The position numbers and the translations under genes were made by a program. Under the pieces are notes generated by a model that did not search any database, was not told the origin of the DNA, and saw nothing but the letters and a program-made list of their open reading frames with translations. Shown piece by piece: positions 1-13,409 of a DNA stretch of 64,000 nucleotides (its first letter is position 1; every line of letters begins with the position of its first letter). The stretch is from an uncultured Gemmatimonadota bacterium (lineage in GTDB: Bacteria; JAAXHH01). The stretch covers positions 64,001 to 128,000 of the forward strand of contig OX638340.1 of NCBI GenBank assembly GCA_951812955.1. The letters run 5' to 3'.

Positions 1-943
1 GGGAGGCGGCCGTTCGATCATCCTGAATGGCCATCTCGATACGGTCGGAGTCGACGGCATGGACGATCCGTTCCGACCGAGGGTCGAAGGCGGCAGAATG
101 TACGGCCGTGGCACAATCGACATGAAAGCGTCAATCGCCGCGATGATGGCCACTTTGGCCAGGGTGCGGAGAAACCCGTTGAGAGGGAACGTCGTCATGA
201 CGGCTGTCGCCGACGAAGAGGCCTACAGCGTCGGCACCACCGCCGTGCTGGACAGCGGCGTGACGGCTGATGCCGCCATCGTGACCGAACCCACAAGCGG
301 GGACGTCGTCGTCGCGCACAAGGGATTCTCATGGGCCGACGTCATCGCCCAGGGTCGCGCCGCCCATGGCTCCCTGCCGGCCGAGGGGCTCGATGCCATC
401 ACGAAGATGGGTGCGTTCCTTCAAGGGCTTGAAAATCTCCAGGCCGAATTGCATAAACACCCGGGTGATCCTATGCTCGGACCGGGTTCGGTTCATGCTT
501 CGACGATCAGCGGCGGCCGTGAAATGTCGAGTTATCCCGCGACCTGTCACCTCGGCGTGGAAAGGCGCACGATCCCGGGTGAGACCGCCCGGGACTTCAT
601 TGCGGAGCTGGAAGGAATCGCCGAACGGTGCCGCCAGGCCGATCCGGGTTTCCAGGCCGAGATCACTCTGACCTTCGATCGACAGCCATTTTCGATTGAG
701 GCAGATCATGAAATCGTCGAGCTGGTCAGGACGGTCGCTACGGAGACAACCGGTCGAGCGCCAGACATATGCGGGAAAGCCGGCTGGATGGATGCCGCGC
801 TGCTGAGCGAGCGCTCGATTCCGACCGTTATCTACGGTCCGGCAGGAGGCGACTTCCACGGGGATAACGAATGGGTGGACCTGGCGTCGATCGAAGTGTG
901 CGCCGATGTCCTCACAGATGTTGCCAGCGAGTTCTGTGCATGA
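1..943 (+). CDS. M20-family metallopeptidase/deacylase (ArgE/DapE-like), 5' end cut by window edge
   Basis: The frame is open from nt 2. The upstream in-frame peptide reads ...ILNGHLDTVGVDGMDDP, which is the M20 His-x-Asp metal-binding motif, ahead of the first in-window ATG at 59. The rest of the 294-aa ORF has M20-like acidic/His residues (VADEEAYS, VAHKGFSWA). Confidence 0.75.
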   Translation, partial: GGGRSIILNGHLDTVGVDGMDDPFRPRVEGGRMYGRGTIDMKASIAAMMATLARVRRNPLRGNVVMTAVADEEAYSVGTTAVLDSGVTADAAIVTEPTSGDVVVAHKGFSWADVIAQGRAAHGSLPAEGLDAITKMGAFLQGLENLQAELHKHPGDPMLGPGSVHASTISGGREMSSYPATCHLGVERRTIPGETARDFIAELEGIAERCRQADPGFQAEITLTFDRQPFSIEADHEIVELVRTVATETTGRAPDICGKAGWMDAALLSERSIPTVIYGPAGGDFHGDNEWVDLASIEVCADVLTDVASEFCA

Positions 944-972
944 CCGGGAGCCCGGGGCGCGATGCACGAACC

Positions 973-1092
973 ATATATCCAGATTAAACTCATCCAAAAA
1001 CATGGCGCCAAGATTCCGGGGTTTTATTGGGTACGGGTATGGTTCGGAACTGATCAGACTTGACAACAACTTAGTTCAGAGATTAAACTGAT
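973..1092. repeat. Pair of about 14-bp direct repeats (AGATTAAACTCATC / AGATTAAACTGATG) about 100 bp apart at the GC-drop boundary
   Basis: The repeats were read directly at about 975-988 and 1078-1091. They sit just after the M20 stop codon, where base composition becomes AT-richer. Confidence 0.3.
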
Positions 1093-1622
1093 GTACAAAT
1101 AACTTATAGAACGCGTCCAGGCCGTTCTCGCCTGGGCACTTGTATTTACACCGTAACAGGATCAGGCGGAACGATGATTCGGACGGTAAGACGCGGTATC
1201 GGTACGGTCGTGATTTGGTTGATCACAACGCTGGTTCGATTGGGGAAACGGTTAATGCGGAATCGGAAACGAGGCGTTGCCTAGCGGAGGATGTGGCGCG
1301 GGCAGCACGGTAGGCAACGAGGGTCGAACCGGAAATCGGATGACGATTGGCAAACGGCCGGTAGTAACGTTAATCACCGATACGATATGCCAGCCGGGGG
1401 GGTGGTACAATACCCGGCGGCGATACAATAGCCGACTACCACATCGAGTATGACTCGCGAGATGGGACCACAAAAGGCGGAAGGATTCGCCGGTTGTGGT
1501 TTTTTTTGTGCGTGGATCCCGGCTCGGTACCTTAGTCATCAAACAGCGTACTTATTCCGAGAACTATACCGATGCTTCCGCTCAATAGATATATAGTCGA
1601 CATACAAAACCATATTGAGACT

Positions 1623-2693
1623 CTATTGACGAGCATTCGTCAGGTCTTCCAATTCATCTTCTTTGTAGGTGGCAGGTACCCATTCACGCGACAGGTATGG
1701 CTTGTCAATTTCGTCCAACTGTAATGCATCACGGTACCATTTGGGTAGGCCAGCTGTCGGCGGATTATCTGGATGGTAAATCGGCCGGTTCCATTGCGGC
1801 ATGCCGACTTCCGGCCAATGATCCTTGTCGTACTTCATAGGATATACCCACCAGAGTCCCAAATTAGATTCAACCAGGAAAATCTCGTCAGGCAAATAAG
1901 TACGCCCAGCAAGTAGAGTTGGTAACTGGTTCCCGATGAGGTCGAATCTCGTATGAGCTGCGTCCTGGCTTTCTAAAACCAGGACGGTTCGTGCTCCATC
2001 AGCACGACACTTCGCCAACTTTGGAAACTTGTCAGCAAAAGCTCTACGGATCCGTTCCGTCCGACAGCTTTCCAAGTCTTCGGGATAGTCAAGTACCGTT
2101 TGAACAAAGCCCGGCTTTCGTCCTGCCTTAATCCCATTCCGCCACCTCAGCAATTCGACTGTACAGTTTATACACGAGAGATCGTCTTTGATGCTATCGT
2201 CGGGAAAACAGTAAAGGCTGATTGGGATTCCATGGCAGTCGATAGGTAAAGACAGTAAGGTATTCCTCTCGTACATGGTCTGGGCACTGCTTAGAATCCA
2301 TTCGGCAAGGTTCTTCAAAGCCCTAACTCGTTTGACTTTCCCCCTGGGCAGACAAACATCTGTTGGTACTTGAAGCACGTAGTACATGGGATCTGGTAAC
2401 TGGCCGGCGAGGCTTTGTATCAAGTACTGTCTAATCTCCACGACGGTTAACTCAGTTTTAATATTGTTCTCAAAGGGTTCAATTATTGTGTGCTCAATCG
2501 CGTATTCTTGTTCACCCAATTTCATACGCAATTCCACTGGCGGCCCTACTCGATCACTCTCAGGATGACGTATTTCAGATCGTTTCTTCCGAGTGCGTCT
2601 TTCCATAGTCTTCACAACCGCGTCGCACGCCTTGCCCTCGTTTTTAGGTACGATTACGTGCGGTTTACTGTATGGAGTCTCGTTATTCTTCAT
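1623..2693 (-). CDS. Hypothetical protein (356 aa), no recognisable domain; island gene
   Basis: Long ORF with AT-richer codon usage like its neighbours. I could not recognise any conserved motifs. Confidence 0.5.
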   Translation of the reverse strand: MKNNETPYSKPHVIVPKNEGKACDAVVKTMERRTRKKRSEIRHPESDRVGPPVELRMKLGEQEYAIEHTIIEPFENNIKTELTVVEIRQYLIQSLAGQLPDPMYYVLQVPTDVCLPRGKVKRVRALKNLAEWILSSAQTMYERNTLLSLPIDCHGIPISLYCFPDDSIKDDLSCINCTVELLRWRNGIKAGRKPGFVQTVLDYPEDLESCRTERIRRAFADKFPKLAKCRADGARTVLVLESQDAAHTRFDLIGNQLPTLLAGRTYLPDEIFLVESNLGLWWVYPMKYDKDHWPEVGMPQWNRPIYHPDNPPTAGLPKWYRDALQLDEIDKPYLSREWVPATYKEDELEDLTNARQ

Positions 2694-3149
2694 CGTTTCC
2701 TAATCTAAATGTAATTAACGGAAAATCGCTGTTGATGGCTGAGTCAGACCCTTTCACCAGTCTTCCGATCCGGTAGCCTTCTGTAGCCTTCTACTGATTA
2801 CAACTTCCAAACCTAATCCAGGAGCCATGCGCCTTGTGGAGATTGCCCCTCTGCAGTAGGGCGGCAGGTCACGAAAGAATCCGTGGACCACTCCAGTAAG
2901 ATTTCACGTAGCATCGCCTACTCGCCCTGACTGTCAAATGCAACCTAGCCATCGGTAACACCAAGCGTGATTCACTAAAGACGGTAAGCCCATGAAGTCT
3001 TCACGGTTCAAAGAAACTCCGAATTCCCTTATCTACGGGTTTTAAAGGGTTATGTAGGGGAGGTGTTGGCAACTGCTAATGGATGTTTCAGAGGGTGGGA
3101 ATGCGGTGTTGAGGCAACTCATAATAGTCCTGGTGATATCTAATCCCCA

Positions 3150-3635
3150 TCACAAGTTGTTTGTACGTCGGAGTAATTTGGATGATACCCAACTCCATGC
3201 TTTCCAAACAAACGAGGTTTTAGTTAGTAAGCCTTGCTCTTTATCAGTCTCCATACGGTCATCGGAGTTGAAAAACCGGTTGATTTCCAATCTATGGTTA
3301 CTTCGCTCCTCAAGAATCTCACGTGTAGACCATCGGCGTGACCAATGAACTTTGTTATTTTCGATCCAATAATGTGATTGACACTCCTCACTCCAATTTC
3401 CCACAGAGGGCCGGAGACTTATAGATAACCCATTGTAAATAAACGCCCACCCAGTGGGATGTAACGGTGTGTTTATCTCGCTACCACACCCACATGCACA
3501 TTTATGGATTACAGTACGGTACTTCAGCGAAATGTAAATTCGACCGTCTTCTAAACGGTTGGGTACAACATCCGAGAAGACCGGGGTAAATTCAGTCGTT
3601 TTTGAAGACCGTTCTAATCGTTTTGTTTTGCACAC
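3150..3635 (-). CDS. Cys-rich small protein (161 aa; CACGCGSE...LHPTG), possible Zn-binding or E2-like partner of the E1-like gene
   Basis: Its start overlaps the last 22 nt of the upstream E1-like gene, suggesting translational coupling. It has a CxCxC cluster followed by an HPT-G motif and a further Cys/His pair (ECQSH). The size is E2-like, but there is no canonical HPN-x8-Cys arrangement. Confidence 0.45.
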   Translation of the reverse strand: MCKTKRLERSSKTTEFTPVFSDVVPNRLEDGRIYISLKYRTVIHKCACGCGSEINTPLHPTGWAFIYNGLSISLRPSVGNWSEECQSHYWIENNKVHWSRRWSTREILEERSNHRLEINRFFNSDDRMETDKEQGLLTKTSFVWKAWSWVSSKLLRRTNNL

Positions 3636-4831
3636 TCGACGTAGTCCCGGTTTATTATCTTGTTTCCGTCCATTATATATCCGGAATCACCCTCATGAAC
3701 TAAGTCTTGAAATACACCTCGGATTTTCTTCCATTTTATTACTGCCAATGCTGCATTGAGGGCGTTTAGTTCTGCCAATTGTATGTTTCTTTCGTACTCT
3801 CCAACATCTCCTCCTGCCATATCGATACGATTCTTCTCTGTCACATGGCCCCTATTGCCCGGTTCACTAGTAGTCGTTCGGAGTATCCCGCCTAGTCTAT
3901 CTCCTTCACGATAAATCCCCATCCCGGTATCAATACAAACGCTCTCGGCATCTTCGCAAATCCTAAATATAGATTGTTTTATGGCATGGCCATCAATACA
4001 CAGGAAAACTGTATCGTGTCCTTTTAACTCATTAACGTTTTCCTCCACAATCTTAGTGGGATGTGCAACAATACCGCGACGCATACGACTGTAGCGTTCG
4101 AAATGAAACTCTGATTTGATGGGGCCTCCTTCCAATTCTTCAACCGCTACTGCTCCCGGTGCTCGAAATGAGTTGTGCTGAAGAAAACGGTCATCGTCAT
4201 ACAGATGGATCTCTTTAACCCATGTCTTAGCAACATAGTCGAGAACGTAAGCCCCGGTCCCACCTAAACCAACAATTGCTACAGTCTCCCCTTCCAATCT
4301 CGAAGATATATCTGTTGTATTTTGACGGGCTGACGCTGTTTCCATAAACGCGAATACATTCGAATTGCTCTCGGATTTCGCGACTTTCCACTTCTGCGCC
4401 GACGTTGACGAGTCGATTTTCCTAGCTTCTCGCGTTATGATTTCAATATAGGTTCTTACTTTGTGTTCATAATCTATGTACCGCCCGCCTTCCGGCTTGG
4501 CTGAAAACATATAGGTTAACTTTAGACCATTGCTCAGAATCTGGTTGTGGCCGCTTTCACCCAGAACCTCAAGCTTCTGTGAATTCCCGTCATACGGAAA
4601 TTCTCCTGTCCAATAGGCCACGTGGTCACCTGGTTGACTAGTTCTCTCGCCTCTGAGGTCAAGTTGCATTACTAATGTTGCCTCTGCAATTCCTCCAACA
4701 CTGGTAACATAAGGCACATCTTGTATTAGAAGGTAGCCATCTATAAATCGGATTGTATATCCGGATTCCTCTATGCGTTTCAGATCCGTATTACGAGCGA
4801 TCAGTGCGTGTGACATTGAATACTGTCCCAT
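3614..4831 (-). CDS. ThiF/MoeB/E1-like adenylyltransferase with an unrecognised ~170-aa N-terminal domain
   Basis: Residues ~175-405 show the Rossmann motif VAIVGLGGTGAYVLDYVAK, an acidic/Arg-finger segment YDDDRFLQHNSFR, a VFLCIDGHAIKQ segment, and downstream Cys residues (ICEDAESVCIDTG), as in E1/ThiF enzymes. The N-terminal 170 aa contain no Cys and match nothing I recognise. Confidence 0.7.
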   Translation of the reverse strand: MGQYSMSHALIARNTDLKRIEESGYTIRFIDGYLLIQDVPYVTSVGGIAEATLVMQLDLRGERTSQPGDHVAYWTGEFPYDGNSQKLEVLGESGHNQILSNGLKLTYMFSAKPEGGRYIDYEHKVRTYIEIITREARKIDSSTSAQKWKVAKSESNSNVFAFMETASARQNTTDISSRLEGETVAIVGLGGTGAYVLDYVAKTWVKEIHLYDDDRFLQHNSFRAPGAVAVEELEGGPIKSEFHFERYSRMRRGIVAHPTKIVEENVNELKGHDTVFLCIDGHAIKQSIFRICEDAESVCIDTGMGIYREGDRLGGILRTTTSEPGNRGHVTEKNRIDMAGGDVGEYERNIQLAELNALNAALAVIKWKKIRGVFQDLVHEGDSGYIMDGNKIINRDYVECAKQND

Positions 4832-5060
4832 CCTTTATCTTCACATTTTCGCCTTCGCTCAAACCACCTTCTTGTTCACGTCCACCACCTTCATAAAACA
4901 GCACTGTGTAACTAATTAAAGCGCCACGACCACCATCCGGGTAAGCTAAATCCACTATTTCGTCAAAAGTCACTTCGTCATGGTCTACGGTGTACGGACG
5001 TGCATTGATTATGATATCAAAACCCTTGTTCTCTAGACTTTGCTGAGGTTCTTTTTCCAT
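4791..5060 (-). CDS. Small beta-grasp/ubiquitin-like protein resembling prokaryotic 'multi-ubiquitin' domains (~89 aa)
   Basis: The segment FDIIINARPYTVDHDEVTFDEIVDLAYPD fits the xIxVNGxxxxVxxxxIsxxEIxxLA pattern of multi-ubiquitin (PF14452-type) beta-grasp domains. The start was chosen at the internal ATG (nt 5060), which is preceded by AAGGAGG 14 nt upstream. The longer ORF from 5147 lacks an RBS and would overlap the upstream gene by 58 nt. Confidence 0.5.
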   Translation of the reverse strand: MEKEPQQSLENKGFDIIINARPYTVDHDEVTFDEIVDLAYPDGGRGALISYTVLFYEGGGREQEGGLSEGENVKIKDGTVFNVTRTDRS

Positions 5061-5089
5061 ATTAATGGCTTCCGCCTCCTTATCGGGAT

Positions 5090-5629
5090 TCAGGCTATGT
5101 CCCTGATGCCCAATGTCAACCCTCCTGAGCGAACGAATTCCCTCCATAGAGGTGACAACAATTGAGCTGCAACTGGAGCTTCACGAGAAGAAAGTATAAT
5201 TTGTAATTCTCTCCTTTCATCTAAAGGTGCCTCTTTCCATATATTGTACAAATCCCAGCAGTTTCCGTCCGTCAAAATACCGTACCTTACCCCGACCTCA
5301 GTACAGTATGTCAACATCTGAGTGCGGTGTGTGTTGAGATCCTCGTTCAGTTTTTTTGCCTCGACTAGAACCAGTGGCTTTCTATCTTCTCCAAGTAATG
5401 CGTAGTCAACACGCTGATTCGCTTGATTTCCTGTACGGAATTCAACTTCTACATGCTCTACGATGCTAACGTCCCAAGCAAGGGCTTTCAATACCGGATC
5501 CACTAATACATTCCTTGTCCTTATCTCATTTTTCTGGAGGTATTCTCCGTGTTTTACTATTACCTCACGTGCTCGTTGTAGCGTGCTTACCAAGGGTTCT
5601 AACAAATCAGTCATAAACTCCCTCACCAC
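5090..5629 (-). CDS. PD-(D/E)xK restriction-endonuclease-fold protein (179 aa), candidate nuclease effector
   Basis: RVDYALLGEDRKPLVLVEAKK gives the D...(D/E)-x-K catalytic signature of the Mrr/PD-(D/E)xK nuclease fold. It is the first gene of the minus-strand operon that continues into the Ubl-like and E1-like genes. Confidence 0.5.
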   Translation of the reverse strand: MVREFMTDLLEPLVSTLQRAREVIVKHGEYLQKNEIRTRNVLVDPVLKALAWDVSIVEHVEVEFRTGNQANQRVDYALLGEDRKPLVLVEAKKLNEDLNTHRTQMLTYCTEVGVRYGILTDGNCWDLYNIWKEAPLDERRELQIILSSREAPVAAQLLSPLWREFVRSGGLTLGIRDIA

Positions 5630-5982
5630 TAAGTGAGCGATTCCCCAGTTGAACTTCTCTACTATAATATACGGCTAGCGGATCTGTACATATTACTTAA
5701 CGTATGATTCGTATGGAACTCTGTCAAATAGATTTCAACTTGAATACAATGTCATTGCTGAATAGATCGTAGCCATATCTCATCTACACCATTGAGTAGC
5801 ATATTGGATTACGCGCGGCGGTTTGGTAATATCGCGCATTCAGGTAGTTGGCGATGCACTTGGCACGCCGCACGGTCCCTGCAGATACGCCACAGAGCCA
5901 ACTCAGGCATGCACGAGTCATTTAACATCAGCCCTAGAAAATGCCCTTGACATCATATGATTTATGAGTCATGTTATGATGT

Positions 5983-6351
5983 ATGAAATGGGAAGTCGAT
6001 TTCCATCCGGCGTTTGATCCCGAGTTTGCCGCCATGGCACTGAAGGTGCAGGACGAACTGCTTACACAAGCAAAGCTCTTGGAGGAGTTCGGACCAACAT
6101 TAGGTCGTCCGCGGGTGGATACGCTAAATGGTTCGCGGCATGCTAATATGAAGGAACTTCGTTTTACTATGACTGGCGGAGTCTGGCGGGTCGCATTTGC
6201 TTTCGACCCCGAACGTAAGGCCATGCTACTGGTTGCCGGCGATAAATCGGGAGTCGGTGAACAACGGTTCTACCAGCAACTGATCAGGAAGGCGGATCAC
6301 CGCTTCGATCTACATCTTGAACTGTTGAAAGCTGAGAGGAGGCCAAGATGA
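5983..6351 (+). CDS. Type II toxin, RelE/ParE-superfamily (HigB/Gp49-like) killer protein
   Basis: A 122-aa protein with ...KELRFTMTGGVWRVAFAFDPERKAMLLVAGDKSG...RFY..., the typical HigB/Gp49 core. It is followed by an HTH antitoxin gene that overlaps it by 4 nt. Confidence 0.65.
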   Translation: MKWEVDFHPAFDPEFAAMALKVQDELLTQAKLLEEFGPTLGRPRVDTLNGSRHANMKELRFTMTGGVWRVAFAFDPERKAMLLVAGDKSGVGEQRFYQQLIRKADHRFDLHLELLKAERRPR

Positions 6352-6698
6352 GTACGTTGACGGACAGAATGGACAAGCTGTCCCCGTCCCGACGGAAGAA
6401 GGTAGAAGAACGGGCCAGGGCGTTGATCGCCGAAGAAATGTCGCTACGGGACTTGCGCAAGGCTCGAAAGCAGACGCAGATGCGGGTCGCCGAGAAGCTC
6501 GGGATCAATCAGGAAAACGTGTCCCGCCTTGAACAGCGCAGTGATCTCTTGATTTCCACCCTCAGCGGCTATGTCGAGGCGATGGGGGGTAAACTGAGTC
6601 TGGTGGCGGAGTTTCCGGACCGGCCGCCAGTGGCGCTGACTGGCATTGCGGCACTCGACGACCTTTTGGAGCGGCCTGCAGAATCTCGTACCGGATGA
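6348..6698 (+). CDS. XRE-family helix-turn-helix antitoxin (HigA-like)
   Basis: A 116-aa protein with an HTH segment (LRKARKQTQMRVAEKLGINQENVSRLEQ). The toxin-then-antitoxin order matches HigBA. Confidence 0.65.
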   Translation: MSTLTDRMDKLSPSRRKKVEERARALIAEEMSLRDLRKARKQTQMRVAEKLGINQENVSRLEQRSDLLISTLSGYVEAMGGKLSLVAEFPDRPPVALTGIAALDDLLERPAESRTG

Positions 6699-6964
6699 AG
6701 AGAGGATCGCGATATGGTCGCAGGCGGGTCGCTAAACGTCGAAAACACACCGGTTCCCGGGTGTCGCGAATCTCAGATTTGGGATATATAACTACAGTGA
6801 GGCGGGACCGGCCTTGGCCTTAGTGGCAAAACGCCTACGATCGATCAGTTCGCATTCCACGCTTGTGAAGATTCTCTTGCACAGCACGTTGTCATAGTAG
6901 TCGTTTACCGAGCCCATAGATGGCCAGATGCCAGCCGTGCAAACCGGTGCCCGTCGGAGCGAAC

Positions 6965-8140
6965 TCATCCACTAGGCGTTCGTCCACCGACCTCCGTCGA
7001 GATTTGTAGAATATACATCAGTGACGGATCGGATTTGAGGAGAATGGCCCGCAGCTGTTCGTCGGTTAGCTTTGTCTCCAATTCGTGGACCCGGTTGAAA
7101 AACTCGATCAGCTTCACCAGTGCTTTGGTGTCTTGGATCACGAATTCAGACAGCGGATCGTTGTACAACTCCCGACAGACGTACAGTACCCTCGCTCGAC
7201 GGGTTGGCTTGCCCTCATGTAGCAGATCCTTCTGATTAGCTAGGCTCAGAATCCATGCAGTAACTAGATCGTCGGGGGCTAATCGTCGGAGCAAATGGTT
7301 CCACAGCTCCCTGAGGGAGGTCAGAATGTGCCGTGCCCGGTCGGCACTGTTTCCATTCAGGGCATCTCGAGCGCCGATGTATGGCCCAGCGAGACTTGGA
7401 TCGACCTGTTGCAGCAGAATGATGCAGTCGGATGTTTCTAACTCTGCCTCGGCGACAAACTGGAATTCCGTTTCGGCCTCTTCTTCGTCCCGTTCACCCC
7501 AGGGGCGAAGAGTTTTGAGCGCGAAGCTGGTAGTGTAGATTTCACGAGTGGCGCCTGGCAAAACGAAAGCAGGTAAGCGCGTAATGTCCGAGACCTCCCG
7601 CAGTGAACCGGCCAAACTTCCATATGAGGCAGCCACCTGGGCAATCGAACTCTCCAGCCCTGAAATGGCGGGCATCTTGATTTGGAATTGACTCCCTATG
7701 GCCTTGAAATCGATGTTCGCCATGAGTCGTTCCGTGGCGATCAATTGCAAAGAAGTATCGCCCAGGGCCAACTTAGCGGATGCTTGAAGCTGGAAAAGTT
7801 GGGAAACTCCCTGTTGAAGAAGATTCGACTGGTCAAGCCAGGATTCATGAGTGGTATGCAGACTCTCGGCAATCCAGTTAGAAGCGGTAGTCTGTTTGAT
7901 CACATCATGCCAGTGTTGATTGGCGTTGGCGATCTCTTTAATCCCGGCCACTGCTTCAGGTATTTCGAGGGCACGACTGATTTCCATTTGATGGAGACGG
8001 AATGGTTCTATCGTGCGTTCTAACTGTTCTATAACGCCTAGGTAGGATGGCTTGGCCAAACGGTTGGAAGCCTCCATGTCCTGACGGAGTTTGCCGATGG
8101 CGGATTTTGCGGACATCAGATCTTCGGAGAGAATATCCAT
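6965..8140 (-). CDS. Hypothetical protein (391 aa), no recognisable domain; island gene
   Basis: Long ORF in the AT-richer island, between the TA pair and HerA. No motifs recognised. Confidence 0.5.
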   Translation of the reverse strand: MDILSEDLMSAKSAIGKLRQDMEASNRLAKPSYLGVIEQLERTIEPFRLHQMEISRALEIPEAVAGIKEIANANQHWHDVIKQTTASNWIAESLHTTHESWLDQSNLLQQGVSQLFQLQASAKLALGDTSLQLIATERLMANIDFKAIGSQFQIKMPAISGLESSIAQVAASYGSLAGSLREVSDITRLPAFVLPGATREIYTTSFALKTLRPWGERDEEEAETEFQFVAEAELETSDCIILLQQVDPSLAGPYIGARDALNGNSADRARHILTSLRELWNHLLRRLAPDDLVTAWILSLANQKDLLHEGKPTRRARVLYVCRELYNDPLSEFVIQDTKALVKLIEFFNRVHELETKLTDEQLRAILLKSDPSLMYILQISTEVGGRTPSG

Positions 8141-8223
8141 ATTTTGATGTTAGTCCCGGAGTTGTCAAATTGCAAGGCTGTGTGGATGTTTGGGTATGCT
8201 GGTACCTTCAACCTCAATTGAAA

Positions 8224-9915
8224 TCATCGGCGCTGATATCTCCAACGCTTAACAACATCTTGAATTTCCGAGTCAGGAGTTGCATCGTTTTGCCACCCCT
8301 TATCGAAGTCAATGTCATTTGATTTCGGTAGCTGATCAGGATTTAAATCACGTATTAGGATGCGCGACGGCAACATTGCAGCTTGGCCAACGAAAATTGC
8401 CTCTTGCCTCCGTAAACCAGAAAGCATCTTTGTCAGACCAGACATCGAATCTGGTAGAATGGATCGAACATGCTCCCTGTCGGCGTCATTGGTGATTCGC
8501 ATAACAATCCAGCTATTGCATTGTGAAAGAACCGTTGCCTCAACTTCGCTTGGGCGCTGGGATACCAACAGGAGCCCTACACCATACTTTCGACCTTCCT
8601 TAGCAACACGCCTGATTGCTTCTTGAGCAGCCTCATATTGCGCTTCGCCCCGATTTGGAACGTAGCGATGAGCTTCTTCACATACCAGTAAAACTGGGTC
8701 AGATTCGCGCTCTGATTGGGTTTGCCAAATCTTCAGATTGAATAAAGTTCGAGCAATTACCGCACTTGATACACCGGCTACTTCATTGGGGACACCGGAC
8801 AGATCTACTATTCTTGGTTGAGACCCATCCCCGATAAGTTGCTTGATAACAGTAAGAAAAGGATCGTTATTTTCCCATTCTGACATCATGAATCGGAGTC
8901 GAGCATCGGTCATTAAGACTTCGAGTTTTTGGAGTATCGAGTTATGAGAATCTTGTTTGCTGAGCGCAGTTGGCTTATCCGCTTCAATCTTTTCTATAAG
9001 CCTCGATAACTTGTATGGTACGGGGGAATCAACAGTTATGAGATTGACATCAAGACCTAGCTGATGCGCACCTTCTTCGCGGGCGTAGATTAAGGCTCTC
9101 TTTACGATGTTAGCTTGTGAGGTCGCAACAAATTCAGTTCTTCCGATCAACAAGGCAACCGTCTCTTGAAAGTTCAAGAGCCAGTATGGAAGTGTTAGTG
9201 TTCCGTCATCAGAGGAAAGTTTAGTATGATCAGTAAATGCGCTGCCGTATTCACCATGGGGGTCGAGTATAATAACCCTGGGCTTCCATTTCGTATATGA
9301 TCTAGTGTCACCTCTATCAAGAATACTGTGAATGATAGCTGCGACCGTACCTGACTTGCCAGCGCCAGTGGAGCCGAGAACGGCTGTGTGTTTACCAAGT
9401 AGTTCATTCAAATCTGCAAAACATGGGGTCCCGCCTGAACCTACATGCTGCCCGAGCTGAACAACGGCACTTTTCGCTTTCCCGTAAATAAAACGCAATT
9501 CAGCTTTTGGAGTCAGATAGACAGTTTGCTGTGGGAGTGGATAGGTTGATACCCCACGTTCAAAAAAAAGCTTCCATTCACTAGATGTCCCATGAATCCA
9601 TTCGCCTTCGCCGAACAGGTCTGCTTCGACGATTCTTTCATCCGAAGATGATGCTGACACCAATCCTCGTTCTGCTTGAAATTCTGATTTCATCCTTAGT
9701 CGGCCGACCAACGCGTAGACGGTTTGACGCCCGAAATGGACTTTGACAATGGAACCAAATTGTCCGATGGGATAGGTTTCTCCCGCATACACACGCGAGA
9801 GTTCAGAAAGAGTCGGATTTAACTCGGCAACAAGGTGAGATCCATCAACTTCAATTATCTTGCCGATTGCCAGATTCTCAATTGGCTCATTGGGATTGCG
9901 AGTCGAAACACTCAT
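8224..9915 (-). CDS. HerA/FtsK-like (DUF87) ATPase, partner of SIR2 (SIR2-HerA defence system)
   Basis: Walker A is LGSTGAGKSGTVAAII and Walker B/DEAH-like is LLVCEEAHRY. The 563-aa size and the 4-nt overlap with the upstream SIR2 gene match the SIR2-HerA arrangement. Confidence 0.75.
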   Translation of the reverse strand: MSVSTRNPNEPIENLAIGKIIEVDGSHLVAELNPTLSELSRVYAGETYPIGQFGSIVKVHFGRQTVYALVGRLRMKSEFQAERGLVSASSSDERIVEADLFGEGEWIHGTSSEWKLFFERGVSTYPLPQQTVYLTPKAELRFIYGKAKSAVVQLGQHVGSGGTPCFADLNELLGKHTAVLGSTGAGKSGTVAAIIHSILDRGDTRSYTKWKPRVIILDPHGEYGSAFTDHTKLSSDDGTLTLPYWLLNFQETVALLIGRTEFVATSQANIVKRALIYAREEGAHQLGLDVNLITVDSPVPYKLSRLIEKIEADKPTALSKQDSHNSILQKLEVLMTDARLRFMMSEWENNDPFLTVIKQLIGDGSQPRIVDLSGVPNEVAGVSSAVIARTLFNLKIWQTQSERESDPVLLVCEEAHRYVPNRGEAQYEAAQEAIRRVAKEGRKYGVGLLLVSQRPSEVEATVLSQCNSWIVMRITNDADREHVRSILPDSMSGLTKMLSGLRRQEAIFVGQAAMLPSRILIRDLNPDQLPKSNDIDFDKGWQNDATPDSEIQDVVKRWRYQRR

Positions 9916-11072
9916 CTTTCACCTCCAAGCAGGCGGGTCAAGTTTTCAAATTTCCACCAAAGTAGGTCGGTGTCGGATGGTGCTTTTTTGCTGCCGTGAA
10001 AGAAGCCAAGATTAGCAAAAATAAGTACTTGCTCGGTTATGGAGTCATCATCATGCCATCTCTTAAGTAGGCCTTTTGGTTCATCATCAGAGGTAAACAC
10101 CACGACGGTAAGACGACCGTCAGATTCACGTAACGCCCGGTCGATTTCGAGATTGATGTGTGAATCACCAAAGCGGTACCCGCACGTAATCAGTATTTTT
10201 TGCGAACCTGAAACAGCCGTTAGTGCTTTCCGCCCATATTCTGCCAATTGAGCATAGGGGTCTCTTTGAGTTTCACGGTATTTGGTGGATGCTGGCCAAA
10301 TGAGAATCTTGTTTTTACCCCCGGATTGTACTTTGACATTACCGGAAACTCGGCGAGGGAGTGGATCACCATCGAACTCGCACCAGTTTATTGAACCGTG
10401 CAGTTTGAAGATCCTCGACGAGAGTCCATCACGCTCAAAATCCGCAGGATTCCACCATCCGGTGACTCCGCCTTCCAGACCATCTGAAAAGGAAACTCGC
10501 TCAAGCGCGAGTGCATCTTCAAGAAGCGTGTCGTAGTTGAGGCAGAGATAGTCCACACGATCAAAGTTGCCCGTTTTACCAGGCCGAATTGGGCGATGAA
10601 CCGCCTTTACGAATTTGCGATGAACCACTACATCGATTTGCTCGTCATTGTGCTCGATTATATTGGAAATGATACGCTTTATATCTTCTGCAGATTCCCT
10701 TAGTTGCTGGCCAGAATATCGATTGTCTTTGATAGTGATCTGGTCATCGGTTGCGCCTCGCTCCGCCCTTCTTTCAGCGATGGCCAGAAGGTCGATTATT
10801 TCACTAAGGTAGTCCTCAATATCTGGATCACTCGCACCGGTGAAACCTTCCTTAATTCCCTTGAGGATCTCTGTGGTATAGTCACTCAAAGCACCTATTT
10901 CCAGTACTTTAGTAGTTAGTTCTTCCATCAATGGTAAACCCGCGCATTTGCTACAACCTGCACCAATTAGGAACACTTTCCCATGCTGGACCATAAGTTC
11001 GTCTAGCGTATCATAAGCTTCAACTAATTGAGGGGTATCCCATATTGCGTCAAGATTGTCAGGTGCGCTCAT
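9912..11072 (-). CDS. SIR2-family (NAD+-consuming) protein of a SIR2-HerA defence pair
   Basis: The NAD-binding GAGxS motif is VFLIGAGCSKCAGLP. The catalytic Asn/Asp is LCLNYDTLLED and the catalytic His is KLHGSINW. The protein is 386 aa and sits immediately upstream of HerA, overlapping it. Confidence 0.75.
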   Translation of the reverse strand: MSAPDNLDAIWDTPQLVEAYDTLDELMVQHGKVFLIGAGCSKCAGLPLMEELTTKVLEIGALSDYTTEILKGIKEGFTGASDPDIEDYLSEIIDLLAIAERRAERGATDDQITIKDNRYSGQQLRESAEDIKRIISNIIEHNDEQIDVVVHRKFVKAVHRPIRPGKTGNFDRVDYLCLNYDTLLEDALALERVSFSDGLEGGVTGWWNPADFERDGLSSRIFKLHGSINWCEFDGDPLPRRVSGNVKVQSGGKNKILIWPASTKYRETQRDPYAQLAEYGRKALTAVSGSQKILITCGYRFGDSHINLEIDRALRESDGRLTVVVFTSDDEPKGLLKRWHDDDSITEQVLIFANLGFFHGSKKAPSDTDLLWWKFENLTRLLGGER

Positions 11073-11340
11073 ATTAACCCTTTCTCATTTTATCATACTC
11101 CAATTTCCTGACTTCATTGCTATTCATGTGTCGCTATGCCATTAACTTCAACAACACGTCGTCTAGACCAAACCGATCATTCAAGGATTTAGCTATCCGA
11201 ACGAGTTTCGGACTTGGTCCGGAGTAAATAGAGAATCAGTCGCCCAAAGTGAGAGAATGTGTGACGGACAGGGAAAATCGACGATGTGGAACGGTTGTTC
11301 GAGAGGACATTAACAGACGCAATCTCTTAGAAACAAGTGC

Positions 11341-11389
11341 AAAAAACCCGTCATCCCCGAGAATGAGCCAGACCCTAGAGAGACGGGTT
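11341..11389 (-). terminator. Hairpin plus U-run terminator just 3' of ssrA (bidirectional hairpin)
   Basis: An 8-bp stem AACCCGTC (11345-11352) pairs with GACGGGTT (11382-11389) across a roughly 29-nt loop. On the minus strand it is followed by TTTTTT (plus-strand A6 at 11341-11346). On the plus strand it is followed by TCTTTTT. Confidence 0.4.
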
Positions 11390-11402
11390 GTCTTTTTAGA
11401 AT

Positions 11403-11766
11403 TGATGGAGGTGGGGGGAATCGAACCCCCGTCCGAAAGTGCCTAAGCGGAAACTTCTACATGCGTAGCCTGTTGTTTAATCTCGTTCCGGAGAACTCCA
11501 GCAGGCAGGATTTAACCGGAACCAGCCTCAGTTGAGTCTCGCCTGGCGCCCTGAGGCGCGACGCCCGGCCAGCCTGCTTTATCGACGCTTTTGACCATCC
11601 CGCAGGCGGGGCTGATCAAAAACGGGCCGGCCTAAGTTACCTTAGGCAGCCATTGCATACGAAGGTTCGTCTGCAGATAAATTGTTCCCAATGGTTTTAC
11701 GAGGTTATCGGGGACCTCGGCACGCGATTCCCGCCGCATCCACTCCCGTCGAATCCTTTCACCCCC
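11403..11766 (-). ncRNA. ssrA: tmRNA (ssrA)
   Basis: The reverse complement begins GGGGGTGAAAGGATTCGACGGG... and ends ...GGACGGGGGTTCGATTCCCCCCACCTCCA. This gives a tRNA-like acceptor stem with a G3:U70 wobble (the Ala identity element) and a T-arm. The internal frame ...GCA GAC GAA CCT TCG TAT GCA ATG GCT GCC TAA (ADEPSYAMAA-stop) is followed by a helix-5-like GCCTAAG/CTTAGGC stem. CCA is not encoded. Confidence 0.85.
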
Positions 11767-11775
11767 ATGTCAAAG

Positions 11776-11804
11776 AACATAGGCCATTTGGGCGCTTCTG
11801 TCAA
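11776..11804 (-). promoter_or_regulatory. Sigma-70-type promoter for ssrA (TTGACA-N17-TATGTT)
   Basis: On the minus strand, TTGACA (11799-11804), a 17-nt spacer and TATGTT (11776-11781) are read. The -10 element ends 9 nt before the mature tmRNA G1. Confidence 0.5.
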
Positions 11805-11880
11805 ATTCGCCCGGCCGCGATGGTTCGGTTGCATCATGATACGGCAGCACCATGGTACGGCTGCATCGCGGTTTGGCCAG

Positions 11881-11953
<73 letters not shown>

Positions 11954-11959
11954 ATTCCA

Positions 11960-12032
11960 TGAGCGCGGAAGGAATCGAACCTTCGACCCACAGATTAAAA
12001 GTCTGTTGCTCTGCCAACTGAGCTACGCGCCC
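11960..12032 (-). tRNA. tRNA-Lys (anticodon UUU)
   Basis: The reverse complement is GGGCGCGTAGCTCAGTTGGCAGAGCAACAGACTTTTAATCTGTGGGTCGAAGGTTCGATTCCTTCCGCGCTCA. It has a cloverleaf with anticodon loop CTTTTAA. Confidence 0.85.
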
Positions 12033-12045
12033 TCGCAGGCGTAGC

Positions 12046-12074
12046 ATAATAAGCGATTACACCTACTTCGTCAA
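12046..12074 (-). promoter_or_regulatory. Sigma-70-type promoter for the tRNA-Lys pair (TTGACG-N17-TATTAT)
   Basis: On the minus strand, TTGACG (12069-12074), a 17-nt spacer and TATTAT (12046-12051) are read. The -10 element lies 13 nt upstream of tRNA nt 1. Confidence 0.45.
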
Positions 12075-12131
12075 CCGATTTCCGGTTAGGACAGGATGGC
12101 CAATGAGCACGAACGCGGGGCCCGCGAAACC

Positions 12132-13409
12132 TTACATGAAAATGGTCGCGTCTCGATGCGAACCCACGGAAACGAGGTCCACTTTGGCCTTCACCAGTTC
12201 CGATATGCGCTCGATGTATGCCTGGGCTTCCTTCGGCAATCCGTCCCAGGTCCGTATGTGGCCGGTGGGCCGATCCCAGCCCTCCATCTCCTCGTATACG
12301 GGCTCGCATCGGCGCAGGACGTTCGCGTCGTTGGGCAGATGAGGGACCACCTCGCCGTTCAGCCTGTATCCGACGCACAGCCTCAGCGTCTGGAGCGTGT
12401 CCAAGGTGTCGAGGCGGGCGAGGGCCAGCCGGTCGATGCCGTTCACCATGACCGCGTAGCGAACCACCATGGCGTCGAACCAGCCGCACCGGCGCGGGCG
12501 GCCCGTCGTAGCGCCGAATTCACCCGCCATGCGCCGGAATTCGTCTCCCCACCTGGAAGGAAACTCAGTGGGGAAGGGGCCGTTGCCTACCCGGGTGGTG
12601 TAGGCCTTGGCCACGCCGATGACTTCGTCGATGCGGGTGGGACCGACGCCGGCGCCCATGCAGGCGGCACCCGTGGTCGTGTTGGAGGACGTGACGTAGG
12701 GATAGGTCCCGTGGTCCACGTCCAGCAGGGTGCCCTGGCTGCCCTCGAACAAGATCTCCTTGTCGGCATCAATAGCGTCGTTGAGATATTCCGACGTATT
12801 CGTCACGAATGGACCGATCCGGTCAGCAAATGCCATGTACTCCTCGATGATCCGGTCGGCGTCGAGCGTCTCGGCCTGGTATATGGCGTCGAGAATCCTG
12901 TTCGCCTCGTCGATATTGCGCTGAAGCTTCTCGCGAAGCACGGACCGATCGTGCAGGTCGCCGATGCGAATACCCTTGCGGGCAGCCTTGTCCGCATAAG
13001 CGGGACCGATACCCCTTCCCGTGGTACCGATCCGCTCTTCCTCCTGCAACTGTTCTTCCCCGACCCGGTCGATCAGCTTGTGGTACGGCATGATAACGTG
13101 GGCGTTGTGGCTGATGAAAAGGCGTCCCTCCACGTCGATGCCGTGAGACCCGAGCATCTCGATCTCTTCCATCAGCGCTTCCGGATCGATCACCGTGCCG
13201 TTGCCGATGACGCAGGCCTTGTCCTGCCGGAGGATGCCGACTGGTATGAGGTGGAGGATGTACTCCTGGTCTCCGATCTGAACGGTGTGCCCGGCATTGG
13301 CCCCGCCCTGGAACCGCACGACGATATCGGCCCGCTCACTCAGGAAATCGACGATCTTTCCCTTGCCTTCATCTCCCCACGCTGCGCCTACGAGTATGCG
13401 AACGGCCAT
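12132..13409 (-). CDS. purA: Adenylosuccinate synthetase
   Basis: The N-terminus reads MAVRILVGAAWGDEGKGKIVDFLSERADIVVRFQGGANAGHTV and the protein is 425 aa. Confidence 0.92.
   Translation of the reverse strand: MAVRILVGAAWGDEGKGKIVDFLSERADIVVRFQGGANAGHTVQIGDQEYILHLIPVGILRQDKACVIGNGTVIDPEALMEEIEMLGSHGIDVEGRLFISHNAHVIMPYHKLIDRVGEEQLQEEERIGTTGRGIGPAYADKAARKGIRIGDLHDRSVLREKLQRNIDEANRILDAIYQAETLDADRIIEEYMAFADRIGPFVTNTSEYLNDAIDADKEILFEGSQGTLLDVDHGTYPYVTSSNTTTGAACMGAGVGPTRIDEVIGVAKAYTTRVGNGPFPTEFPSRWGDEFRRMAGEFGATTGRPRRCGWFDAMVVRYAVMVNGIDRLALARLDTLDTLQTLRLCVGYRLNGEVVPHLPNDANVLRRCEPVYEEMEGWDRPTGHIRTWDGLPKEAQAYIERISELVKAKVDLVSVGSHRDATIFM

Follow-up and report, generated by a model that had tools for sequence, protein, structure and literature searches.

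Adjacent genes for a SIR2-domain protein and a HerA-like ATPase raise the question of whether they form an anti-phage defense system, and if so which one and with what partners. Here we address this question for such a pair at positions 8224-11072 of a 64,000-nucleotide (nt) stretch of DNA, called the window below, from an uncultured Gemmatimonadota bacterium (assembly GCA_951812955.1, contig OX638340.1, positions 64,001 to 128,000; Table 1). An earlier note on this DNA had read the pair as a known SIR2-HerA anti-phage system, a proposal that Pfam and PADLOC matches, catalytic-residue alignment and operon structure now support. With gene order pointing the same way, we take the pair to be confirmed, at the level of sequence, as a genuine and ordinary member of this known family. 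We consider it very likely that the two genes encode an abortive-infection system, that this system is a self-sufficient mobile cassette that arrived as one block, and that a third co-oriented gene, of Pfam family PF18165, is a neighbor or auxiliary.

Table 1. Features of the SIR2-HerA module and its island, in window positions (aa, amino acids; tmRNA, transfer-messenger RNA)
Feature	Position	Strand	Details or basis
SIR2_2-family NADase-type gene	9912..11072	-	386 aa; GAGCS 37-41, N179/D181 (LNYDTL), H225 (KLHGS)
HerA/FtsK-type hexameric ATPase gene	8224..9915	-	563 aa; GSTGAGKS 181-188 (K187), CEEAH 412-416, VSQRP 451-455
SIR2/HerA stop-start overlap ATGA, 4 nt	9912..9915	-	direct sequence reading
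HerA-to-PF18165 spacer, 83 nt	8141..8223	-	last ~30 nt homologous to "empty" BrxA|PF18165 spacer (locus L050)
Third co-oriented gene, Pfam pP_pnuc_1 (PF18165)	6965..8140	-	391 aa, Pfam 9.8e-21, predicted all-helical
3'-end remnant of BrxA-like (BREX) gene, last 13 codons, 43 nt	11134..11176	-	blastn, DNA alignment, translation
Low-GC, strain-variable island holding the module (~10 kb)	1000..11400	.	GC 45-54% vs backbone 60-65%; genome ~62%
tmRNA gene	11406..11766	-	ARAGORN; predicted tag peptide EPSYAMAA
Multi_ubiq gene	4791-5147	-	ubiquitin-like conjugation operon
DUF6791+ThiF E1-like gene	3614-4831	-	NCBIfam PRK06153-type, 434 bits
DUF6527 gene	3150-3635	-	ubiquitin-like conjugation operon

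The sequence features on which the earlier note relied are all present. In the SIR2 protein, the GAGCS loop, LNYDTL and KLHGS begin at residues 37, 178 and 223; in the HerA protein, the Walker A motif GSTGAGKSGT and the CEEAHRY motif begin at residues 181 and 412. The two genes lie in the canonical order, SIR2 then HerA, and share the four nucleotides ATGA, an overlap that suggests translational coupling; a GGAGG sequence 7 nt upstream of the HerA start serves as an internal ribosome-binding site. SIR2-first order is kept in all 20+ related loci, and the ATGA overlap occurs in all relatives examined. The SIR2 protein contains five cysteines and a single CxxC (C40/C43) within the GAGCSKC nucleotide-binding loop, and because this sole CxxC sits inside the glycine loop, the protein has no four-cysteine zinc ribbon. 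The motifs fall on the catalytic positions of solved SIR2-HerA systems, and the zinc-ribbon sirtuin that the note had raised as a counter-possibility is not what the gene encodes. The note's description of a high-GC (guanine-plus-cytosine) genome fits the backbone (60-65%) but not the pair itself, which has a GC content of 46-47% and lies in a low-GC island.

Homology places the SIR2 protein among HerA-partnered SIR2 proteins. It matches Pfam SIR2_2 (PF13289, 6.6e-12) and, over its full length (residues 21-382), the PADLOC SIR2 model PDLC04088 (1.7e-68). A single-sequence phmmer search of the PDB returned only the Paenibacillus (8W9L, 1.1e-12) and S. aureus (8YHX, 1e-09) proteins, and at E<=0.01 did not recover the E. 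coli Nezha Sir2 (8J4U). With a profile built from 30 relatives and a threshold of E<=1, exactly three PDB sequences were matched, all HerA-partnered: 8W9L (3.3e-18), 8YHX (2.1e-16) and 8J4U (9.8e-06). N179, D181 and H225 align with N163, D165 and H212 of 8W9L, which the authors of the Paenibacillus study consider putative catalytic residues (PMC11472057). H225 also aligns with H287 of S. aureus Sir2 (8YHX), whose mutation abolishes NADase activity (PMC11514289), and the GxGxS loop aligns as well. An AlphaFold2 model of moderate confidence (predicted local distance difference test, pLDDT, 66) served for fold ranking only, not for active-site geometry. In a Foldseek search with this model, ranks 1-29 were all SIR2 chains of SIR2-HerA complexes, with Paenibacillus first (1.5e-12, template-modeling score 0.55-0.60), then E. 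coli (~1e-9) and then S. aureus; DSR2 and SPARSA followed at E ~1e-2 and the canonical sirtuin Hst2 at 0.37. Overall, the profile search and the Foldseek ranking, the latter resting on a model of pLDDT 66, tie the protein specifically to HerA-partnered SIR2s and set it apart from sirtuins, ThsA, DSR and SPARSA.

The HerA protein is likewise matched over its full length by a PADLOC model (PDLC04105, residues 14-562, 1.6e-138), which completes for both proteins the PADLOC comparison proposed in the earlier note, and by the Pfam DUF87/HerA central domain (PF01935, 4.7e-34). Among solved structures it matches 9C1M (2.1e-70), 8WIV (4.2e-68), 8XAU (4.3e-62) and 8J4U (1.2e-32) and, more weakly, S. 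aureus HerA (3.1e-26) and 4D2I (5.2e-20). K187 corresponds to K173 of Paenibacillus HerA, and the K173A mutation abolishes defense in that system (PMC11472057). The alignment with 8WIV spans residues 16-308 and 331-561, with GSTGxGKS, EEAH and SQRPSE all aligned, and the protein has the N-terminal barrel, Walker A, Walker B and arginine-finger region that define the family.

HerA homologues also act in archaeal double-strand-break repair, and the pair could in principle be a housekeeping HerA end-resection helicase next to a sirtuin deacetylase, with no part in defense. A match to the NCBIfam model helicase_HerA (8.5e-39) and the match to 4D2I are what such a pair would give, and a HerA-family ATPase is indeed what the window shares with the archaeal HerA-NurA(-Mre11-Rad50) end-resection module. 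However, HerA falls far under the repair-HerA cut-offs (NF040819, 133 vs 970 bits), far weaker than its matches to anti-phage HerA, and NurA, Mre11 and Rad50 were not found in the window island. Moreover, the SIR2 protein belongs to SIR2_2 and lacks the zinc ribbon, canonical sirtuins appear only at the Foldseek E-value of Hst2, and the pair sits in a low-GC, strain-variable island. We find a housekeeping role barely credible.

The system has reportedly been called "SIR2+HerA" by Gao et al. in 2020. Judged by the matches above, the window pair is nearest the Paenibacillus prototype and, of the three solved systems, farthest from E. coli Nezha. The Paenibacillus sp. 453MF system (8W9L, 8WIV, 8WLD; PMC11472057) likewise has two genes, SIR2 then HerA. 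It supplies the closest solved SIR2 and a HerA that aligns across the HAS-barrel and ATPase domains, with the N/D/H residues, Walker A lysine, EEAH and SQRP all in register; it differs in its low SIR2 identity (~21% in the structural alignment), its longer HerA (696 aa) and the PF18165 gene that accompanies the window lineage. S. aureus Sir2-HerA (8YHO, 8YHX; PMC11514289) shares the H225/H287 position and the GxGxS loop, but its HerA is more distant and its SaSir2 is a dimer without the C-terminal helix. E. coli Nezha (8J4U, 8SU9; PMC13434337) shares the two-gene architecture and the fold, and the earlier label "Nezha-type" holds as a loose synonym of SIR2-HerA. In the strict sense it does not: the name denotes the E. 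coli system of 8J4U (cluster 1), Sir2-HerA lineages this divergent are counted as separate types (PMC13434337), and neither window protein is closely related to its E. coli counterpart, the E. coli HerA ranking fifth among the solved HerAs. The best HerA match of all comes from DUF4297-HerA (9C1M, 8XAU; bioRxiv 10.1101/2024.10.24.620088, PMC11291478), where the partner is a DUF4297 (Cap4-like) nuclease; in the window the partner is SIR2_2, and DUF4297 has no match among the island open reading frames (ORFs) scanned.

If the pair works as its solved relatives from Paenibacillus, S. aureus and E. coli do (PMC11472057, PMC11514289, PMC13434337), six HerA subunits would assemble into a ring with ATPase and translocase activity, on which a SIR2 oligomer would dock. 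This assembly, together with a cue from the phage, would switch on NAD+ hydrolysis by SIR2 through N179, D181 and H225, and the complex would become active as an ATPase, helicase and nuclease as well. NAD+ would then be depleted, and the infected cell would stop growing before phage release. In the E. coli type III Sir2-HerA system, the cues are single-stranded-DNA-binding (SSB)-like proteins and DNA ends, gated by ATP.

As an account of the locus, the two-gene pair stands but is incomplete, since the earlier note overlooked both the PF18165 gene downstream and a BrxA-like remnant upstream of SIR2. The remnant reads RFGLDDVLLKLMA-stop, and the C-terminus of the BrxA-like protein in a related locus, L016, reads RYGLDDELLKLKA-stop; blastn aligns the window with L016 from window position 11176 to 6999. 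Synonymous divergence (dS) from L016 is similar in SIR2 (0.80), HerA (1.05) and PF18165 (0.82), and the three genes were therefore inherited as one block. BREX genes, the DUF2188 gene and mobility genes were not found in the window. The BrxA-like remnant is a trace of the BREX surroundings in which the module once lay, and together with the PF18165 gene it marks the pair as a mobile cassette lifted from a BREX-associated slot. In the history that we propose, a block made up of the last BrxA-like codons, SIR2, HerA and PF18165 would have been taken from a slot at the 3' end of BREX or restriction-modification (R-M) arrays on integrative elements, and would have come to rest in the low-GC island beside the tmRNA gene.

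The same observations might suggest a dead, non-functional fragment of a former BREX island, as BrxA is reduced to 13 codons and DUF2188, all BREX genes and mobility genes are missing. Against decay, all three ORFs are intact and keep their catalytic residues, and L007 and L008 carry an undamaged copy of the trio at this site. The ratio of nonsynonymous to synonymous divergence (dN/dS) against several relatives, including L007, is 0.10-0.20 for SIR2, 0.05-0.15 for HerA and 0.15-0.29 for PF18165, so all three genes are under purifying selection. That the block is a decaying remnant is very improbable.

How tightly PF18165 is bound to the pair can be judged from related loci. The close relatives L007 and L008 have the genes in the order SIR2-HerA-PF18165 at the same chromosomal site, and this order recurs in L009 (a relaxase-bearing element), in a Kiritimatiellia metagenome-assembled genome and Desulfobulbus rhabdoformis (L016, L017), and in eight metagenome loci. 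SIR2-HerA cassettes also occur without PF18165, with SIR2 identities of 77%, 73%, 66% and 59%, either in type I R-M operons (L126, L011-L015) or standalone (L127, L010). Because such relatives occur, the pair is autonomous and PF18165 is not obligate; PF18165 is probably a co-travelling or co-transcribed neighbor, or an auxiliary gene, rather than a subunit that the system requires. Within the type I R-M operons of L011-L015 and L126, SIR2-HerA lies between hsdS and hsdR, and in L011-L015 it is accompanied by YhcG, HSDR_N, RhuM/Fic and AAA_14 genes.

A wider sample of 110 PF18165 loci (30 genome loci with taxonomic labels from many phyla and 80 metagenome loci on unlabelled contigs) shows what kind of site the gene marks. 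The PF18165 proteins are 48-79% identical to the window copy, mostly 68-79%, and copies other than the window's are mostly ~90% identical to each other. In the 110 loci PF18165 is the array's last gene, always co-oriented with the gene before it. Every classifiable locus has an interchangeable defense cassette directly upstream of PF18165, apart from one empty metagenome locus, L050, where a BrxA-like gene directly precedes it. The cassettes, with genome and metagenome loci in that order, are a SbcD-SbcC-like pair following PDC-S06, a LmuB-like ATPase or a long SIR2-HerA (5 and 20), Hachiman (HamA-HamB; 5 and 13), window-type SIR2-HerA (3 and 8), GmrSD-type HEC-05 (4 and 7), NERD/UvrD helicase (2 and 1) and Wadjet (JetABCD; 1 and 1); the remaining loci are too short upstream or not classifiable. 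The "empty" slot of L050 (positions 6116-8086) consists of the BrxA-like gene, 81 nt, PF18165 and DUF2188.

The boundaries of the slot are sharp. In blastn comparisons of L016 with 18 other loci, homology ends abruptly at the BrxA-like stop codon, returns at PF18165 codons 3-4 and extends ~520 nt past PF18165, and there are two more insertion points, one behind PF18165 and one behind DUF2188. Further left, where BREX is a frequent neighbor, stand type 3-like BREX (BrxHII-PglZ-BrxA-like), type 1 BREX (PglZ-BrxL) or other helicase systems, as well as type I R-M subunits (HsdR in L017; HsdM in L119 and L120). To the right, PF18165 is usually followed by DUF2188 and, within 1-3 kb, by P4-type integrases, a TraI_2 relaxase or a NikA-relaxase-primase set. 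The BrxA-like|PF18165 site is a slot, in the cargo region of integrative elements, whose cassettes are swapped by recombination, and PF18165-DUF2188 is its constant right flank. Both ends of the empty-site spacer are kept only in the SIR2-HerA type. We also considered site-specific, integron-like cassette ends and rejected them, as no common motif lies upstream of PF18165 across cassette types.

Two further arrangements were seen at PF18165 loci. In L001, L026, L034, L059, L063 and L079, a long SIR2 (~447-470 aa) and a long HerA (~711-735 aa) are followed by SbcD-like, SbcC-like and PF18165 genes, an array that resembles the archaeal HerA-Mre11-Rad50 neighborhood with SIR2 replacing NurA. In L119 (positions 4548-12151), a distant PF18165 member (49-50% identity) follows HsdM and a Schlafen/AlbA_2-HATPase_c_4-winged-helix-turn-helix protein and is itself followed by a reverse-transcriptase gene.

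The setting of the slot recalls the recruitment of auxiliary "backup" effectors known from BREX and R-M loci (PMC12839542). PF18165 and its cassettes likewise stand at the 3' end of BREX type 3, BREX type 1 or type I R-M arrays, and GmrSD-type and Schlafen-type modules take the same position; unlike those loci, the window has lost its BREX genes. The text of PMC12839542 contains no mention of PF18165/pP_pnuc_1, of a BrxA|PF18165 slot or of SIR2-HerA or Hachiman cassettes in such a slot.

PF18165 itself is a large family, with 1250 clusters at 50% identity (E<=1e-3). The AlphaFold2 model of the window protein is confident (pLDDT 87) and has no structural relative in the PDB. In a set of 53 diverse members, seven residues never vary (R270, H271, S275, R277, P289, W296 and H352), and five of the 10 longer members examined carry N-terminal HsdS domains, the specificity module of type I R-M; a Pfam scan of members found no recurrent family besides PF18165. 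No NCBIfam model matches the protein, and its PADLOC match is confined to a weak hit to Aga_Nuclease (3.8e-07). A search of a plasmid collection gave only four remote matches (27-28% identity), and full-text literature searches found no paper on pP_pnuc_1/PF18165. Being large, confidently folded without a solved relative, and marked by invariant arginine and histidine residues and HsdS fusions, the family is a widespread, uncharacterized and tractable candidate for auxiliary defense.

The Pfam name pP_pnuc_1 denotes a pPIWI/pAgo-associated nuclease. An association with pAgo was rejected: no PIWI or Argonaute match was found among the window island ORFs or the annotated neighbors in related loci. 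Also unlikely is a PF18165-DUF2188 toxin-antitoxin pair, or at any rate one in which PF18165 is the toxin, as the window is without DUF2188 and its PF18165 is nonetheless intact and constrained. By analogy with the BREX backup effectors, PF18165 may be an auxiliary gene of DNA-surveillance defense arrays; it could just as well be no more than the first backbone gene beside the cargo slot.

A closer bond would make the locus a three-component system in which PF18165 works together with SIR2-HerA, perhaps as a nuclease, as a backup effector or as a sensor common to whichever cassettes stand upstream. PF18165 is co-oriented with HerA across the 83-nt gap, which contains no terminator-like hairpin on the minus strand and a single promoter-like match, TTGACA-16-CAAAAT at 8168-8141, of a kind no commoner there than chance. 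At least 16 loci, spread over several phyla, retain the trio, and PF18165 is under purifying selection in the window even without BREX and DUF2188. The invariance of R270, H271, S275, R277 and H352 suggests an active site, the HsdS fusions imply physical coupling to DNA-surveillance complexes in some members, and backup effectors are known in BREX and R-M loci (PMC12839542). However, SIR2-HerA at 59-77% identity is found without PF18165 in L010-L015, L126 and L127, at least six unrelated cassette types precede PF18165 (and none does in one locus), and cassette types are scattered over the PF18165 tree, which does not track them. Moreover, characterized SIR2-HerA systems function as two genes (PMC11472057, PMC11514289, PMC13434337). 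A three-component SIR2-HerA system is distinctly unlikely.

Several observations nevertheless weigh against the preferred reading of a self-sufficient two-gene system. The NCBIfam models SIR2_antiphage (NF042942) and HerA_antiphage (NF042943) score 41 against a 500-bit cut-off and 174 against 800, and the best NCBIfam HerA model, HerA_antiphage_2, also stays below threshold (300 against 850 bits). By these scores, the pair is a divergent lineage outside the narrow NCBIfam equivalogs. HerA is marginally nearer the DUF4297-partnered HerA 9C1M than any SIR2-partnered HerA, and the active-site segments of the SIR2 model fall below pLDDT 50. What the sequences show is conserved catalytic and ATP-binding residues, full-length homology and operon structure; assembly, activation and NADase activity of the window pair are inferred from the solved relatives. 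Finally, the gap between PF18165 and the cassette gene before it is often only 7-30 nt, and the window spacer shows no terminator; a functional link between PF18165 and SIR2-HerA is conceivable.

Such a link might take a more general form, in which PF18165 is a shared terminal component, a backup effector or guard co-transcribed with whichever cassette occupies the slot, and the window an undescribed three-component SIR2-HerA variant. This seems unlikely. If true, the component would serve SIR2-HerA, Hachiman, SbcCD-type, GmrSD-type, Wadjet, BREX and type I R-M systems, and the BrxA|PF18165-DUF2188 site would be a dedicated platform for the exchange of defense cassettes on integrative elements.

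For the SIR2-HerA family, the two-gene pair adds a divergent environmental lineage, nearer Paenibacillus than E. coli Nezha, to a well-studied group. What is new here, and more useful than the pair itself, is the PF18165 gene that travels with it and the cassette slot that this gene marks. SIR2-HerA occurs in three settings, namely the bounded BrxA-like|PF18165 slot, type I R-M operons and standalone loci, and whole defense systems are therefore shuffled as cassettes between islands and phyla.

The neighborhood had been read in the earlier note as a defense island, and its low GC content, position next to a tmRNA gene, defense-type cargo and variable content between close relatives bear this out. 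The low-GC island begins ~230 nt beyond the tmRNA 3' end, the distance at which the transferred block now lies, and homology between L008 and the window starts at 11422. L007 is without window positions 2673-6800, and L046 is without 1538-5756. A search of window positions 900-11800 for an integrase, or for a directly repeated copy of the tmRNA 3' end, gave no match. The border of the island at 11406-12032 (minus strand) is formed by the tmRNA gene and a tandem pair of tRNA-Lys genes (CTT, TTT).

Several other genes share the island. A three-gene ubiquitin-like conjugation operon (3150-5147, minus strand) is probably another defense-type module and is absent from the syntenic L007 and L046, making it strain-variable cargo. 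A minus-strand gene at 5090-5629 encodes a 179-aa protein made up of nothing but an HSDR_N/PD-(D/E)XK-type domain, the N-terminal part of type I restriction R subunits; the 3' end of this gene runs into the beginning of the Multi_ubiq ORF. A 356-aa ORF at 1623-2693 (minus strand) has no Pfam, NCBIfam or PADLOC match; it is 86-87% identical at the nucleotide level in L007 and L008, where it stands directly after the N6_Mtase fragment that follows PF18165. On the tmRNA side of SIR2-HerA, L008 (positions 2864-8559) carries genes for a 1227-aa SIR2_2-domain protein and a DUF4238 protein that are not in the window. Between the ubiquitin-like operon and PF18165, a Gp49/HigB-like toxin gene and a helix-turn-helix (HigA-like) gene overlap by 4 nt (5983-6698, plus strand), and this HigBA-like pair is also present in L046.

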